Origin: Deltaproteobacteria bacterium
GTDB taxonomy: Bacteria > Desulfobacterota > GWC2-55-46 > DRME01
Direction of reading: 5' to 3'
DNA: 64,000 nucleotides
Assembly: GCA_011375175.1 (NCBI GenBank)
Contig: DRME01000063.1
Span: 12,182-76,181, forward strand
The translations under genes and the position numbers were made by a program. Every line of letters begins with the position of its first letter. The stretch's first letter is position 1. The notes under the pieces were generated by a model that was given only the letters and a program-made list of their open reading frames with translations, did no database searches and was not told the origin of the DNA. Positions 18,414 through 63,888 of the stretch are shown piece after piece.

Positions 18414-18623
18414 TGAGGAAACTCTGATTTATTACGCTGGGGGAAACTTTCTGTAGAAAGTTTCCCCCAGACCCCCTTCAAAGACTTTCAATACGAGGTG
18501 GTTTCCCCCTGTTTTGCCAAGCAAAACAGGGGGAAACCACCTCGCATTAAAAGTTTTTGGAGGGAGTCTGAGGGAACCTTTTTACAAAAAGGTTCCCTCA
18601 GTGCAATAAATCGGAGTCTCCAT
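18414..18623. repeat. Composite palindromic repeat, copy 2, MITE-like with ~23-bp terminal inverted repeats
   Basis: Left end is aggaaactctgatttattacgctg. Right end is cagtgcaataaatcggagtctcc. These are imperfect inverted repeats. The internal hairpins are identical to copy 1. Confidence 0.8.
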
Positions 18624-21272: not shown

Positions 21273-21460
21273 ACTGAGGGAACCTTTTTGTAAAAAAGGT
21301 TCCCTCAGACTCCCTCCAAAAACTTTTAACGCCCTGCGGACCATCCCGATTCTGCTTGCAGAATCGGGATGGTCCGCAGGGGATTAAAAGTCTTTGAAGG
21401 GGGTCTGGGGGAAACGTGGGCCTGTGGCCCTTCTGCGGAAAGTTTCCCCCGGTGAAGGCT
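21273..21460. repeat. Composite palindromic repeat, copy 3 (inverted orientation relative to copy 2)
   Basis: Contains ctgagggaacctttttgtaaaaaaggttccctcag, the hairpin tcccgattctgcttgcagaatcggga and gggggaaac…gtttccccc-type modules. Confidence 0.75.
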
Positions 21461-50338: not shown

Positions 50339-51058
50339 ATGCGTTTCGACATATTGACGCTCTTTCCGGCCTACTTCGATTCGCCGCTCAAGCAGAGCGT
50401 TCTCGGCAGGGCGGCGCAGCGCGGGCTCATAGAGGTGCGGACCCACGATATAAGGGACTTCGCCCGTGACAGGCACAGGACCACCGACGACAGTCCCTAC
50501 GGCGGCGGTGCGGGCATGGTCATGAAGGTCGAGCCCGTTGTGGCCGCCATAGAGTCGCTCGTCGGCCCGAGGGAGCCGGGCGTGCGGGGCGCCTCCGCCG
50601 GCGAACGGGTCGTGATGCTCACCCCGCAGGGCGAGCCCTTCGACCAGGCCATGGCCTCGAGGCTTGCCGCCCTCGAAAGGGTCGTACTCCTGTGCGGCCG
50701 CTACGAGGGCTTCGACGAGCGCATAAGGGCCTTCGTCGACATGGAGCTCTCGGTGGGCGACTACGTGCTCTCCGGCGGCGAGCCGGCGGCCCTCGTCGTC
50801 GTCGACGCCGTGGCGAGGCTCGTCGAGGGAGTGCTCGGAAACTCCGCGTCGGCCCTGACCGACTCCTTTTCGTCGGGGCTGCTCGAACACCCGCACTACA
50901 CGAGGCCCGATGAGTTCAGGGGACTGACCGTCCCGGCGGTGCTCCTCTCCGGCGACCACGGGGCCATCGAGCGCTGGCGCAGGGCCGAGAGTCGCAGGCG
51001 CACGCTGCAAAGACGGCCCGACCTCGCGGCCCGGGGCGCAAGGCTGGGGGGACGGTGA
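50339..51058 (+). CDS. trmD: tRNA (guanine37-N1)-methyltransferase TrmD
   Basis: It has [17 protein letters not shown]…, [13 protein letters not shown] and …[12 protein letters not shown]…. Confidence 0.9.
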
Positions 51059-51173
51059 GCCGCCAGGGGCTCCATGTAGAGGCAGGGACCCTCTGAGCGG
51101 TGATTATTCTACGATCAACAGTCAGTTGCGGCTTTTAGTTGAAGCGGTACATGAATAGGGAGGATGTGGTGAC

Positions 51174-51515
51174 ATGGCAACCGTAGGCGATATCGAAAAA
51201 GAATTTCTCAGGACCGACCTGCCCGACTTCAGGCCCGGGGACACGGTGGTCGTCAACGTGAGGATCAAGGAGGGCGAGAAGGAGAGGATCCAGGCCTTCC
51301 AGGGCACGGTCATAAGGAAGCGCGGCGGCGGCACGGGCGCCACCTTCACGGTCAGGAAGGTCTCTTACGGCATCGGTGTGGAGAGGATATTCCCCCTCCA
51401 CTGCCCGTCCATCGAGTCCGTCAAGGTGCTCAACCGCGGCAAGGTCCGCCGCGCAAGGCTCTACTACCTGCGAAACCTCAAGGGCAAGGCCGCAAGGATC
51501 AAGACAAGGCGCTGA
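51174..51515 (+). CDS. rplS: 50S ribosomal protein L19
   Basis: 113 aa with …[29 protein letters not shown]…. Confidence 0.9.
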
Positions 51516-51572
51516 GACCGCGGCACCGCGTCCCGTCTCATCCCGCCGCTCTTCACGCCGGAGGGGCACGCC

Positions 51573-52229
51573 ATGGCAGGGGAGAAAGCGTCGGCTCCGG
51601 GCCCCACCGCGGAGCTCGAGGCCCAGGCCCGAAAGATGGGGGTCGAGGCCGTGGCAGGCGTTGACGAGGCCGGACGCGGCCCCCTCGCTGGCCCCGTGGC
51701 CGCCGCGGCGGTGGTCTTCGCGGGCGCGCCGCCAGAGATCGGCATCGACGACTCCAAGAGGCTCGCGCCGCGGCTTCGCACGAGGCTCGCCGCCGAGATA
51801 TTCCGCACTGCCAGGGCCGTGGGCCTTGGCCTTGCCTGGCCGGCCGAGATCGACGGGCTCAACATCCACAGGGCGACCCTCCTCGCCATGGAACGGGCCG
51901 TCGCCCGCCTTGCTCCCGTCAGGCCACGGCTCCTGCTCATCGACGGCATCCACACAACGGCCCTCGGCGTCGAACAGAGGACCGTCAAGGGAGGCGACGC
52001 CAGGTGCCTCTCCATAGCCGCCGCCTCCATAGTGGCCAAGACGGCGCGCGACCGCATCATGGAGGCCTACGAGCGCATCTACCCGGGTTACGGCTTCGGC
52101 AGCAACAAGGGCTACGGCACGGCAAGACACATCGACGCCCTCCGCGCCCTCGGCCCCACGCCCATACACCGCAGGACGTTCCTCGGCAGGATTCTCGATG
52201 TCCGGAACCTTTCCGGCATCTCCCGGTGA
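51573..52229 (+). CDS. rnhB: Ribonuclease HII
   Basis: It has …AGVDEAGRGPLAGPV… and …DDSKRL… catalytic motifs. Confidence 0.85.
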   Translation: MAGEKASAPGPTAELEAQARKMGVEAVAGVDEAGRGPLAGPVAAAAVVFAGAPPEIGIDDSKRLAPRLRTRLAAEIFRTARAVGLGLAWPAEIDGLNIHRATLLAMERAVARLAPVRPRLLLIDGIHTTALGVEQRTVKGGDARCLSIAAASIVAKTARDRIMEAYERIYPGYGFGSNKGYGTARHIDALRALGPTPIHRRTFLGRILDVRNLSGISR

Positions 52230-52253
52230 ACACCCTTAGGCGAACATCTCCCG

Positions 52254-52625
52254 ATGAGCACCTCTGCGAACAGTGAGCTCGGCCGCCGCGGCGAGGACGA
52301 GGCCGCAAGGCTCCTCACGGCGAGGGGCTACAGGATACTCGCCCGCAACTACCGCACGCGCCGCGGCGAGGTCGACATAGTGGCCGCCGACGGAGACGCA
52401 ATCGTCTTCGTCGAGGTCAAGACCCGCGCCGGCGCCGGCTTCGGCGCCCCTGCGGCCGCCGTCGACGCCCGCAAGATGCGCCGCATGACGCTCGCCTCCC
52501 GCGCCTTCCTCGCCCTCCACGGTCTCGAGGACAGGCCCGCCCGCTTCGACGTGGTGAGCGTCGAGATCCGCGACGGCCGCACAAGGTGCGAGCTCATAAA
52601 AAACGCCTTCGATGCCCCCGACTGA
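52254..52625 (+). CDS. yraN: YraN family (UPF0102) putative endonuclease
   Basis: 123 aa with …GEDEAARLLTARGYRILARNYR…GEVDIVA…VFVEVKTR…. Confidence 0.8.
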   Translation: MSTSANSELGRRGEDEAARLLTARGYRILARNYRTRRGEVDIVAADGDAIVFVEVKTRAGAGFGAPAAAVDARKMRRMTLASRAFLALHGLEDRPARFDVVSVEIRDGRTRCELIKNAFDAPD

Positions 52626-52626
52626 C

Positions 52627-52658
52627 CTACTTTCTTTTTTGAAAAAAAAGAAAGTAGG
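52627..52658 (+). terminator. Perfect 15-bp-stem hairpin after yraN (possible terminator)
   Basis: cctactttcttttttGAaaaaaagaaagtagg. The stems are A/T-rich and there is no clean 3' U-tract, so function is uncertain. Confidence 0.35.
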
Positions 52659-52680
52659 CAAAGAAAAAACAATGGATCTT

Positions 52681-53075
52681 CATGGGCGTCGCGGTGTCGT
52701 CGGTACGCAAAGCGGCCCTCGTCTCCATCGCTCGTGCCTGCGCTCCTTCAGGGAAGGTGTTTGGGCAGGGAAAGACAGGGGTTCTTGATGGGGGTCGCGG
52801 CGGCGTCGGCGCGCAAGGCGGCCCTCGTCTCCATCGCTCGTGCCTGCGCTCCTTCAGGGAAGGTGTTTGGGCAGGGAAAGACAGGGGTTCTTGATGGGGG
52901 TCGCGGCGGCGTCGGCGCGCAAGGCGGCCTTCGTCTCCAGCGCTCGTGCCTGCGCTCCTTCAGGGAAGGTGTTTGGGCAGGGAAAGACAGGGGTTCTTGA
53001 TGGGGGTCGCGGCGGCGTCGGCGCGCAAGGCGGCCTTCGTCCCCATCGCTCGTGCCTGCGCTCCTTTAGGGGGCG
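52681..53075. repeat. Tandem direct repeat, 106-bp unit × ~3.7 copies (noncoding minisatellite)
   Basis: Units start at 52681, 52787, 52893 and 52999, with a period of exactly 106 bp and >90% identity. The period is not a multiple of 3. It generates three overlapping artefactual ORFs in the track. Confidence 0.85.
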
Positions 53076-53163
53076 TCTTCCTTCAGGGGTCTTGACGCCC
53101 TGCGGCGGATCTCTTCGGTTTTGATGCGGAATCGAGGGGAGTTGAGAGTCTTTTTCGGGGGGC

Positions 53164-53685
53164 TCAGCGGTCCCACATCCCCCTGCCGCCGCCTTCTTCG
53201 GGTTTGTCCTCGAAGGGCGAGCGGTCGATGAGCGGAACCGGGCGGCGCGGCTCTCGGGGCTTGGGGTGCGAGTCGGTGGAGGTCCTGATCTCCTCCACCG
53301 CCTCAAGGCGCATCCCCTCGAGGAGATCGACGGCCTCGGCCGCCCGTTTGCGCCCGTCCGGGTCGAGCCGCGGCGCAAGGGAGCGGAGCGAGTCGATAAG
53401 CGCCGCCGCGTAGTCGTCGAAGACCCTGGCCACGCGGCGCTGCCTGCGCGGTCCGGGCTCGTCGGACCAGCGGATGTTCCTGAGCATCCGCGCCGTCTCG
53501 TCGCTCCTGCGGGAAGCCTCCTCCATGGCCGGCGCGGCCTCGGGCATGAGGGGCTCCACGGCCCTGCCCAGCGCCGCCTCGAACTCGTCCACGTGCCTTA
53601 GCGCGATGGAGACGCAGTCGGTCTGCGCCGCGGCCGGCCGGGGGATGAGGAAGAAGGCGATAACGAGGATGGCGGTCGTCATAAA
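53164..53685 (-). CDS. Hypothetical secreted protein with signal peptide
   Basis: The ATG at ~53685 gives MTTAILVIAFFLIPRPAAAQTD…, a helical charged protein of ~174 aa. The longer track ORF N-terminus runs into the repeat element and is discounted. Confidence 0.45.
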   Translation of the reverse strand, partial: FMTTAILVIAFFLIPRPAAAQTDCVSIALRHVDEFEAALGRAVEPLMPEAAPAMEEASRRSDETARMLRNIRWSDEPGPRRQRRVARVFDDYAAALIDSLRSLAPRLDPDGRKRAAEAVDLLEGMRLEAVEEIRTSTDSHPKPREPRRPVPLIDRSPFEDKPEEGGGRGMWDR

Positions 53686-53699
53686 GGTATCCTGCCCGC

Positions 53700-53880
53700 G
53701 CCGGCTGCCTCGCGGGGGGCTGCACCGGGGGGGCGGCCCGCAAGGGCGTAAAAAATCCCGCCTGGCGCGGGCCGACCCCCCGGTGCAGCCGAAGACCCGA
53801 ATAACATACGATGGGGGGAAACGCGGGCCTGTGGCCCTTCTACGGAAGAAAATTTCCCCCGGTGCAATAATTATACAGAA
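53700..53880. repeat. Composite palindromic repeat, copy 4
   Basis: Contains gggggaaacgcgggcctgtggcccttctacggaagaaaatttccccc and …ccgaataacatacgatgggg, the reverse-complement of modules in copy 5. Confidence 0.7.
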
Positions 53881-53882
53881 AG

Positions 53883-56501
53883 GTGTCAGGGGTGTCAAAT
53901 CGTCGAGACGGTGATAGAAAGGTTCTCATGCTGGTGGACGGCAACTCCCTCGTCTACCGTGCTTACCATGCCATGCCCCACCTCACCGCGCCCGACTCCA
54001 CGCCCACGGGCGCGGTCTACGGCTTCACGCAGACCCTTCGAAAGCTCATGCGCGAGCACCGTCCCACCCACATGGCCGTGGCCTTCGATCTCAAGGGTCC
54101 CACGGTGCGCCACGCCCTCTACGGCGACTACAAGATCGACCGCCCGCCCATGCCCGGCGACCTGGCGCGGCAGATACCGGTCGTAAAACGCGTCGTCGAG
54201 GCCATGGGCGTGAAGGTGATGGAGATGGAGGGCTACGAGGCCGACGACATCATCGCCACGGCCGTCAAGGCGCTGCAAGACCCGGACGCCGTGGACATAA
54301 AGATAGTCAGCTCCGACAAGGACCTCTGCCAGCTCGTGGGCGAGGGCGTGGTCATGATCGACGCCGCCACCGGCAGGGTGCGGACCCCCGAGTACGTGCG
54401 CGGGAAGTTCGGCGTAGAGCCCGGACGGATCCCCGACTGGCTCGGCCTGGCCGGCGACCCCGCCGACAACATACCGGGCGTGCCCGGCATAGGGCCGCGC
54501 ACGGCGACGAGGCTCATAGACCGCCACGGCTCTATCGACGATATTTATGCAGACCTGTCAAAGATTTCGGGCAAGAAGCTGAGGGAAAATCTCGAAGAGA
54601 ACAGGGACCTTGCCTTCCTCTCCAAGGTCCTGGCCACCGTCATCACCGACGTGCCCCTGGACCTGGAGTTCGAGGGGCTCGAGATCGGCTCGGAGAGCGG
54701 CGACCTTGCGGCGCTTTATGCGGAGCTCGGCTTCGAGAGGCTCCTGCGCGGGCTGCGCGGCGGCGGCGACGGCCCGGACATCGACTATGAGACCATCGAC
54801 GGCGAGGGAGCCTTCGCTCGATTCCGCTCCGCCCTCGCCGGGCCGCTCGCCTTCTACCTCGACGACGCCGGCGGCGGGGCCCTGGCCTTCGCGTCCGCCG
54901 GCGGCGGGCTCTGGTACATGCCTCTCGGCGGAGAAGGGCCTTTGCCGCGGGGCCTTGCCTCGCTCATGGAGGACGGGACGGTCGAGAAGGTGACCGACGA
55001 CGCCAAGAAAGCCCACCTCTTCTTCCTGCGCCGCGGCGTGGCGCCGCGCTCGGTGGTGATGGACACCTCGCTCGCCTCCTACCTGCTCGATCCATCGAGA
55101 AGCGGCCACGCCCTGGAGACCGTGGCGCTGGAGCACCTCTCCAGGAGCCTTGCGCCCATGGAGGGGGGTGAGCACGGGGAGCTTTCCGAACGGGCGAGGG
55201 CGGCCCGGTGCTGCGAGCGGGCCTCGGTCCTCGGAGAGCTCGCGCCGCTTCTCGAGGCGAGGCTCGAAGAGGCGGACCTCTCGGCCCTTCTGCGGTCCAT
55301 GGAGCTGCCCCTTGCGCGCATACTGGCCCGCATGGAGCTTGCGGGCGTCAAGGTGGATACGGCGCAGCTCGAGATGCTTTCCCGCGAGATAGAGGGGCGC
55401 CTTGCCGCCATCGAGGAGGAGATATACAGGCACGCCGGCCGCAGGTTCAACATAAACTCGCCCAAGCAGCTCTCGGCGCTCCTCTTCGGCGAACTGGGGC
55501 TCAAGCCCCTCAAGAAGACGAAGACCGGCTACTCCACCGACGAGGGCGTGCTCACCGCCCTTGCGCCACTCCACGAGGTGCCGCGCCTCATAATCGAGTA
55601 CCGGGGCCTTGCAAAGCTCAAGGGGACCTACGTGGACGCCCTCGTCGCCCTCGCCGACCCGGCCACGGGCCGCATCCACACCTCGCTGAACCAGACCGTC
55701 ACCGCCACTGGCAGGCTTTCGAGCTCGAGGCCCAACCTGCAGAACATACCGGTTCGCAGCGAGCTGGGCCGCCGCATCCGCCGCGCCTTCGTGGCCGAGC
55801 GGGGCAGCGTGCTCCTCTCGGCCGACTACTCGCAGATAGAGCTGCGTCTCGTGGCCCACATGTCGGGCGACCCGGCGCTCATCGAGGCCTTCGGAAACGA
55901 CGAGGACATCCACACCGCCACGGCCGCCTCGGTCTTCGGCGTCCCGCCGGCCGAGGTCACCTCCGAGATGCGACGCAGGGCCAAGGCCATAAACTTCGGC
56001 ATCATCTACGGCATGGGCGGCTACGGACTCGCCAGGGAGCTGGGCGTGGCCGTCGCAGAGGCCGAGGCCTACATAGAGAGTTACTTCGCCCACTACGCCA
56101 GGGTGAGGGAGTTCATCGAGAGGACCGTGGAGCAGGCCGGGAGGCTCGGATGGACGACGACGCTCTTCGGCCGGCGGCGCATGATACCGGAGCTCGCAAG
56201 CGGCAAGGAGAACGTCGTCCGCCTCGGCGAGCGCATGGCCGTCAACACGCCCGTGCAGGGATCGGCGGCCGATATCATCAAGGCCGCCATGATAGCCGTC
56301 GACGGCGAGCTCGAAAGACGGGCCATGAGATCGCGCATGGTGCTCCAGGTCCACGACGAGCTCCTCTTCGAGGCACCCGCCGACGAACGCGACGAGCTCG
56401 AGGAGATCGTCAGGACCCGCATGGAGGGCGTCGTGCGCCTTGACGTCCCGCTGAAGGTCAATATCGGCACAGGTGCCAACTGGTGCGAGCTCGATGGCTG
56501 A
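53883..56501 (+). CDS. polA: DNA polymerase I
   Basis: It has a 5'-nuclease N-terminus (LVDGNSLVYRAYHA…), a middle region, and a family A polymerase domain (…RRRAKAINFGIIYGMG…, …QVHDELLFE…). The start is either the GTG at 53883 or the ATG at 53928. Confidence 0.9.
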   Translation: MSGVSNRRDGDRKVLMLVDGNSLVYRAYHAMPHLTAPDSTPTGAVYGFTQTLRKLMREHRPTHMAVAFDLKGPTVRHALYGDYKIDRPPMPGDLARQIPVVKRVVEAMGVKVMEMEGYEADDIIATAVKALQDPDAVDIKIVSSDKDLCQLVGEGVVMIDAATGRVRTPEYVRGKFGVEPGRIPDWLGLAGDPADNIPGVPGIGPRTATRLIDRHGSIDDIYADLSKISGKKLRENLEENRDLAFLSKVLATVITDVPLDLEFEGLEIGSESGDLAALYAELGFERLLRGLRGGGDGPDIDYETIDGEGAFARFRSALAGPLAFYLDDAGGGALAFASAGGGLWYMPLGGEGPLPRGLASLMEDGTVEKVTDDAKKAHLFFLRRGVAPRSVVMDTSLASYLLDPSRSGHALETVALEHLSRSLAPMEGGEHGELSERARAARCCERASVLGELAPLLEARLEEADLSALLRSMELPLARILARMELAGVKVDTAQLEMLSREIEGRLAAIEEEIYRHAGRRFNINSPKQLSALLFGELGLKPLKKTKTGYSTDEGVLTALAPLHEVPRLIIEYRGLAKLKGTYVDALVALADPATGRIHTSLNQTVTATGRLSSSRPNLQNIPVRSELGRRIRRAFVAERGSVLLSADYSQIELRLVAHMSGDPALIEAFGNDEDIHTATAASVFGVPPAEVTSEMRRRAKAINFGIIYGMGGYGLARELGVAVAEAEAYIESYFAHYARVREFIERTVEQAGRLGWTTTLFGRRRMIPELASGKENVVRLGERMAVNTPVQGSAADIIKAAMIAVDGELERRAMRSRMVLQVHDELLFEAPADERDELEEIVRTRMEGVVRLDVPLKVNIGTGANWCELDG

Positions 56502-63489: not shown

Positions 63490-63888
63490 TCACGCACATC
63501 TTCTTGCTGGGGGGGACTCTCTTGTTATTCGGATCTTCGGCTGTGCCGGGAAGCTCGGCCCGCGCCAGGCGGGATTGTTACGCCTTTGCGGCCCGAGCTC
63601 CCCGGCACAGCCCCCCGAGGCAGCCGGCGCGGGCAGCCTGGGGGAAACTTTCTGTAGAAGGGCCATAGGCCCGAGGGCCACAGGCCCACGTTCCCCCCTC
63701 GTCCCATCGTATGTTATTCGGATCTTCGGCTGTACCGGGGAGTTCGGCCCGCGCCAGGCGGGGTTGTTACGCCTTTGCGGCCCGAACTCCCCGGCACAGC
63801 CCCCCGAGGCAGCCGGCGCGGGCAGCCTGGGGGAAACGGGGGTCTGAGACCCGTGGGTCCGAGACCCTTTACAAAAGGTTCTCTCAGT
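63490..63888. repeat. Composite palindromic repeat cluster, copy 5 (contains a ~190-bp internal tandem duplication)
   Basis: ttattcggatcttcggctgt[g/a]ccggg…ccccggcacagcc…cagcctggggga occurs twice head-to-tail. Each unit has a ~25-bp-stem hairpin (ggctgtgccggg…gcggcccgagctccccggcacagcc), plus gggggaaac and gggtctgagaccc modules. Confidence 0.8.

Follow-up and report, generated by a model that had tools for sequence, protein, structure and literature searches.

A 106-bp tandem repeat between yraN and a convergent secreted-protein gene is probably a young, lineage-specific minisatellite

The intergenic region downstream of yraN contains a tandem array of a 106-bp unit, which lies at positions 52677..53071 of the window (the whole 64-kb stretch of DNA that was analyzed). 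We consider it probable that this array is a young, lineage-specific minisatellite, a product of either slippage or unequal recombination, without a dedicated function and probably variable in copy number. In this scenario a ~106-bp piece of the short convergent spacer between yraN and the secreted-protein gene would have been duplicated head to tail. The units would then have been amplified and partly homogenised, either by replication slippage or by unequal homologous recombination between units. The array would encode nothing, and its main effect would be that the convergent spacer has grown from ~30 bp to 538 bp. The number of copies would be expected to vary within the population.

The array is the strongest tandem repeat in the window. 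Tandem Repeats Finder reported a period of 106, 3.7 copies, 95% matches, zero indels and a score of 706; all other arrays in the window score 60 or less. The units lie on the plus strand and start in register at 52677, 52783, 52889 and 52995. Unit 2 (52783..52888) equals the consensus. Unit 3 (52889..52994) matches it at 104/106 positions and carries a C41T substitution, which also occurs in unit 4. Unit 1 (52677..52782) is the most diverged full unit, with 99/106 matches to unit 2 and 97/106 to unit 3. The fourth unit (52995..53071) is partial; it is repeat-like over ~72-78 nt and then becomes divergent, and the nhmmer match to it covers profile positions 1-78. Hence the inner units are 98% identical and the edge units are degraded, which is the pattern expected from unequal exchange.

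A decayed edge is also evident on the left side of the array. The A-rich linker (52659..52676, plus strand), which precedes unit 1, weakly resembles the 3' end of the unit from ~52665 onward; the local alignment pairs AAAAACAATGGATCTTCATGGGCGTC with unit positions 94-120, and the direct-repeat family D1 begins at 52665. Because the weak periodic similarity starts at this point, the repeated tract amounts to ~3.8-3.9 copies. The window contains three copies of a 47-nt core of the unit, with zero expected from shuffled sequences. The substitutions in the units are nested: T41 is common to units 3 and 4, G52 is found only in unit 3 and C48 only in unit 4. These unit-specific changes indicate a genuine duplication history.

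A published database search for minisatellites set minimum values of 20 bp for the unit, 2 for the number of copies and 90% for the identity between copies; strain typing is a common use of such loci (PMC2884548). The array agrees with this structural definition in unit, copies and identity: a long unit is arranged head to tail in 3.7 copies, and the full units are 91.5-98% identical to one another. These values confirm the ~3.7 tandem copies and the >90% identity among units that had been given in a preliminary description of this DNA. The same description had called the array GC-rich; with a GC content of 67%, compared to a window average of 65%, this does not hold. The array shares with the bacterial minisatellites and VNTR loci of MLVA schemes a long head-to-tail unit of >90% identity, decayed edges and the restriction to a single locus that is intergenic and non-coding. 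It differs from VNTR loci in that these are defined by polymorphic copy number, whereas the array is known from one uncultured MAG without close relatives. The suggestion that the array is a VNTR therefore stands with respect to the minisatellite anatomy (identity, decayed edges, nested substitutions, lack of coding function and absence from relatives); the copy number comes from one assembled read set.

The anatomy also excludes several other classes of repeats. The units abut with no spacers between them, which rules out a CRISPR array. A TR/VR pair of a DGR, in which two copies of ~100 bp differ at adenines, is ruled out by the mixed nature of the substitutions (G>C, C>T, G>T, T>G and T>C) and by the fact that no reverse transcriptase is located in the neighbourhood. 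The intergenic spacer is not surrounded by terminal inverted repeats and is hence not a MITE or an IS remnant. Iterons and parS sites were rejected on anatomical grounds.

The array is non-coding. In each unit a single TGA occurs per strand, and since 106 mod 3 = 1 this stop rotates through the frames. As a result ORFs are capped at 105 codons, and spurious ORFs of 70-94 aa cross the array. This corrects the earlier statement that every frame is stopped in each unit; the conclusion drawn from it, namely that the array is non-coding, is nevertheless sound, as there is neither a called gene nor any protein relative. No gene was called at the array in either of the two gene-called assemblies, and a six-frame conceptual translation of the unit found zero relatives among 5.8 billion proteins. 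The latter result implies that no gene caller has ever called an ORF on a similar array.

Next to its anatomy, the minisatellite reading is based on the uniqueness of the unit. No second copy was detected in the window, in the next 9.5 kb of the contig (73.5 kb in total) or in the corresponding loci of relatives. For this purpose the window was searched with a 47-mer allowing 3 mismatches; blastn with word size 7 was run on the masked window, the 9.5-kb extension and the relatives, and nhmmer was run with the --max option. The search for the unit elsewhere in the genome, which had been suggested in the preliminary description, thus recovered the array alone over 73.5 kb. A 20-mer that is invariant in the four units matched twice in the GTDB genomes, three times in JGI metagenomes and never in IMG/VR, in scans that detect exact matches only and are therefore escaped by diverged relatives, that cover one genome per species in the case of GTDB, and that were made in collections none of which contains the source MAG. 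All of these matches are single and have unrelated flanks; the GTDB and JGI matches are chance matches. A blastn search of plasmids and phages in 'distant' mode gave zero matches.

The unit is also unrelated to the palindromic repeat families of the window, as the preliminary description had stated and as blastn and nhmmer both indicate. One of these families consists of three copies of ~110 nt at 53700-53810 (in inverted orientation), 63520-63630 and 63710-63820. The copies have 24-25-bp stems (GGCTGYRCCGGGGRG..GGCCCGC), a loop of ~24 nt and a flank, TGTTATTCGGRTCTTC, that is conserved among them; as a family they are REP- or MITE-like. The Logan contig L009 terminates inside one palindromic copy (63539-63612). 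Larger composite palindromic elements, with arms of up to 101 nt, are located at 1206-1345, 18417-18621 and 21274-21413 and contain internal perfect hairpins of 16 bp (CTGGGGGAAACTTTCT/AGAAAGTTTCCCCCAG). These composite elements are presumably the palindromic repeat family that was mentioned in the preliminary description.

The uniqueness of the unit separates the array from two well-known families of intergenic repeats. MIRU elements are tandem units of ~50-100 bp, which occur in intergenic regions beside housekeeping operons; they form a family scattered over dozens of loci, and many of them contain small ORFs, which overlap with the genes on either side. The array resembles them as a set of tandem intergenic units adjoining a housekeeping operon. 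Unlike MIRU, it is confined to a single locus in 73.5 kb according to blastn and nhmmer and shows no such arrangement of ORFs; we do not assign it to the MIRU. REP units are palindromes of 20-40 bp, which are dispersed in hundreds of copies. The array has in common with REP/BIME elements its position in the 3' region between convergent genes, its capacity to form hairpins and a potential influence on the ends of mRNAs. It is, however, a direct repeat of 106 bp in one place and does not belong to this family.

Repeats of this kind can be created or distorted by assembly, and we examined whether the array is seen in more than one assembly. Over 20 kb the window is 100% identical to a contig in ENA, which comes from a hydrothermal-vent metagenome (ERZ940665/SRR4453772). 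The ENA contig, a MEGAHIT product with k127 in its name, has its start within one of the composite palindromic elements, at window position 18475; hence the window must come from another assembly. The array is base-identical in both. The longest exact repeat within the array is 112 nt, which is shorter than k = 127, and every 127-mer in the array is unique. The picture is less complete for a second run, SRR7787189, in its Logan assembly with k=31. The contigs of this assembly match the window at 100% to the left and to the right; they end at 52672 and resume at 53818, and the 1,145 bp in between (52673-53817), which comprise the array and the 172-aa gene, are without a record. The break points do not lie at 31-mers that are repeated in the window, the first of which starts at 52712. 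The gap could be due to heterogeneity, to repeats in other parts of the genome or to low coverage.

It is very unlikely, in our judgement, that the array or its copy number was created or distorted when short reads from a repeat or from several mixed strains were assembled. Such an origin would be compatible with the fact that all available data are short-read metagenome assemblies and that the Logan k=31 assembly breaks on either side of the stretch; furthermore, additional units identical to unit 2 or unit 3 would collapse without being seen. However, two separate assemblies yield the same array to the base, the unique 127-mers exceed the longest internal exact repeat, and nested unit-specific substitutions together with decayed edges are not features that assemblers invent.

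The array is embedded in a spacer of 538 bp (52626..53163) between two gene ends. On its left side yraN (UPF0102; 52254..52625, plus strand; Pfam PF02021, E 9e-29) closes the cluster ffh-KH-rimM-trmD-rplS-rnhB-yraN. The first base past the yraN stop codon is also the first base of a perfect AT-rich hairpin (52626..52658) with a 15-bp stem (52626-52640/52644-52658) and a 3-nt loop; it was detected as inverted repeat I16 with 100% complementarity, and the array begins 18 nt beyond it. With DNA parameters the hairpin folds with -13.7 kcal/mol (z -7.1). Both the inverted repeat and the fold verify the perfect 15-bp stem that had been described between yraN and the array. No U-tract follows the stem on either strand, and the hairpin is not scored as a terminator in the consensus scan.

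On the right side of the array a non-repeated tail (53072..53163) was examined by direct reading, folding and the consensus scan. It contains a hairpin with a 7-bp stem, GGGCGTC..GACGCCC (53071-53100), and one further TCCTTCAGGG motif; a canonical terminator was not found here by the scan. Part of the tail (53098-53123) resembles the 3' end of the adjacent 172-aa gene (53181-53206) with 20/26 matches. As 7 of 300 shuffles reached the same value, the evidence for a duplicate of the gene end is weak, and the similarity is either a trace of an old duplication or chance. The similarity of the tail to a decayed fifth unit is not significant.

The gene on the right side (53164..53682, minus strand) encodes a protein of 172 aa, whose NCBI entry, from a Deltaproteobacteria MAG, is labelled hypothetical protein. 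It has a signal-peptide-like N-terminus and no Pfam family, in accordance with the convergent secreted-protein gene of the preliminary description; the array is located in its 3' region. A sigma-70 promoter on the minus strand (53870..53898) faces the 172-aa gene and, past that gene, the array. With TTGACA-17-TATAAT it matches the consensus at 12/12 positions, with 0.1 such promoters expected in shuffled sequence. The region 53683-53898 of the window (minus strand) comprises this promoter and a leader of ~180 nt, which precedes the gene. This leader carries one copy of the palindromic element, the loop of which is a terminator-like hairpin followed by a T-run (53771..53757). The hairpin and T-run could serve as an attenuator or give rise to a short RNA; the leader has no match in Rfam.

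The spacer in other genomes suggests when the array was acquired. The nearest YraN relatives in databases are at most 61% identical, which means that there are no close strains for a comparison. A more distant locus, L013 (GCA_964365865.1, a Deltaproteobacteria bacterium in NCBI), preserves the gene order in full, with ffh, rpsP, rimM, trmD, rplS, rnhB, yraN, a convergent small gene, polA and a response regulator. Between L013 and the window YraN is 59% identical, and the small gene of L013 is an ortholog of the 172-aa gene (E 5e-17, with 30% identity along the entire length). In this genome the convergent spacer measures 35 bp and contains a small hairpin; in a further locus with yraN, small gene and polA in this order, L019, it measures 29 bp. 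The order yraN, convergent small gene and polA is also present in L017 (Logan SRR12113407, 1134-1509), where the spacer has 376 bp and is unrelated to the array; an AT-rich part is followed by a purine-rich part, and repeats are absent. A single 13-mer in opposite orientation is all that this spacer has in common with the unit, and we treat it as a chance match rather than as homology. The length of the convergent spacer is evolutionarily labile. The fact that the spacers of the relatives measure 29-35 bp, or have 376 bp of unrelated sequence, identifies the 538-bp spacer, together with the array that occupies the greater part of it, as a recent, lineage-specific expansion.

The same comparison shows that the small secreted protein between yraN and polA (53164-53682 in the window; 5422-5970 in L013) belongs to a conserved, unannotated family with no match in Pfam. 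Distant relatives are 30% identical and have a C-terminal G-I/M-W-E/D-R motif in common. The ortholog in L013 was found by synteny alone; a word-based protein search missed it.

We also analyzed the array for signs of a function at the RNA level. A search with Rfam 15 at a permissive E-value over 51000-54500 gave no matches to the array and only sub-threshold chance matches on the AT-rich hairpin; a scan for tRNA and tmRNA found none. Neither a sigma-70-type promoter nor an intrinsic terminator was detected in the 538-bp spacer, in a scan which covers sigma-70-like promoters only. The units thus lack their own sigma-70-like promoter and intrinsic terminator, and this rules out a cluster of tandem small-RNA genes.

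The unit was furthermore folded in both directions. The plus strand forms two hairpins with -49.6 kcal/mol, compared to -31.7 kcal/mol for the minus strand. The z-scores of the plus-strand unit in three registers are -1.5, -1.0 and -0.6, and those of the minus strand range from -0.4 to +0.4. The plus-strand values are within the range of the shuffles, and the stability hence reflects a composition rich in G and U. Folding with DNA parameters gave the same result, in that the stability of the unit is indistinguishable from that of shuffles. The whole plus-strand spacer folds with z = -2.4. Unit 1 contains two substitutions that disrupt the main predicted stem, both of them uncompensated. The C41T change in units 3 and 4 converts a G-C pair into a G-U pair, which is too little for an analysis of covariation. 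No compensatory changes were seen among the units, which as four near-identical copies are uninformative in this respect.

On this basis it is improbable that the array acts as a structured RNA on the plus strand, either as a 3'-UTR of the yraN operon that blocks 3' exonucleases in the manner of REP/BIME elements or as a source of small RNAs processed from this 3'-UTR. An RNA function would account for the two hairpins per unit and their greater stability on the plus strand, for several G-U pairs in the stems that are workable on this strand only, for a C41T change that preserves its pair as G-U, and for the z-score of the entire spacer. It is at odds with unit z-scores in the range of shuffles, the negative Rfam result, units that have no promoter or terminator, and the two stem-breaking changes in unit 1. 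In addition the element is missing from relatives. The structured-RNA array that the preliminary description had listed as an option therefore gains no support from Rfam, from z-scores between -1.5 and +0.4 or from the promoter and terminator scan.

At the DNA level there is a perfect 13-bp dyad, CCTTCAGGGAAGG (CCTTC-N3-GAAGG), which occurs once per unit with an exact spacing of 106 bp (~10 helical turns). As a candidate operator it shows no enrichment, since all matches outside the array carry 1-2 mismatches and occur at chance level. This leaves the protein-binding array, another option raised in the preliminary description, without support, as the dyad is the only one in the unit. A relaxed G4 motif with loops of up to 9 nt is also present once per unit, so that the array contributes 3 of the 17 plus-strand motifs of this type in the window; canonical G4 motifs, with loops of 7 nt at most, are absent. 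An element that acts as DNA, by phased protein-binding sites or as a G-quadruplex-prone tract which affects replication or transcription, is in our view highly improbable. The exact phasing of the dyad and the G4 motif in each unit are what such an element would predict. On the other hand, the dyad is not enriched elsewhere, the G4 motif is of the relaxed type, the site lies between two gene ends with no promoter there to regulate, and no regulator gene specific to this locus is found nearby.

The array has one oddity of composition, a strand asymmetry, and this gives a functional role a modest probability. On the plus strand, a 46-nt stretch (52854-52900 and the equivalent in each unit), which includes the relaxed G4 motif, has 23 G and 4 C; this excess of G over C is at the 99.9th percentile of the window and is unusual for a random spacer. 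It could point to a strand-specific role. RNA from the minus strand of the array would accordingly have a C/G ratio of 2.3-2.5 per 78-nt window, which is at or above the 99th percentile (up to the 99.6th). Rut sites are C-rich, G-poor and unstructured segments of RNA, which are followed by a pause hairpin; they are not normally tandem repeats. The minus-strand RNA of each unit, with the hairpin downstream, resembles this arrangement and Rho-dependent terminators in composition: it is C-rich, G-poor and weakly structured over ~70-80 nt upstream of a putative pause site. The tandem repetition of the array is a difference from rut sites.

These data suggest another explanation, which we regard as unlikely, namely that the array is a Rho-dependent terminator or insulator of the convergent 172-aa gene. 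Transcripts from the promoter at 53898..53870 would cross this gene into the array, where each unit would be rut-like and the AT-rich hairpin would serve as the pause site. More units would mean more sites for the loading of Rho, and this would shield the rplS-rnhB-yraN operon from antisense read-through. The C/G ratio on the minus strand and the 46-nt core are consistent with such a role, as are minus-strand folds that are weak and no better than shuffles, a 538-bp spacer without an intrinsic terminator, a 12/12 promoter upstream of the convergent gene and a perfect hairpin that is located, in minus-strand direction, 18 nt downstream of the last unit. However, the basis of this explanation is composition, and similar skews occur within ordinary genes nearby. 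Relatives manage with a spacer of 29-35 bp and a small hairpin; transcription of the array is hypothetical, and a single unit might suffice. If the Rho role were true, the array would be a tidy case of a terminator built by tandem amplification, which would be of moderate interest for the field of transcription termination.

A broader version, to which we give an even lower probability, is that the array is a modular, bidirectional and factor-dependent insulator, which ends both convergent transcripts. One strand of the unit would be rut-like and rich in C, the other rich in G and able to form hairpins or G4 structures. The transcripts that are ended would be those of the strongly promoted secreted-protein gene and of the operon for the ribosomal protein and RNase HII. 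If this were the case, evolution could rapidly arrive at a bidirectional factor-dependent terminator by amplifying a unit in tandem.

We therefore favor the young minisatellite as the probable explanation of the array; its neutrality is what we infer from one genome. In this case the array is of an ordinary kind and is another example of an intergenic minisatellite; its host is an uncultured deltaproteobacterium from a hydrothermal vent, without close sequenced relatives. At this site, assemblies from short reads will probably break or give a wrong copy number. For the same population it could be used as a strain-resolving marker in vent metagenomes.
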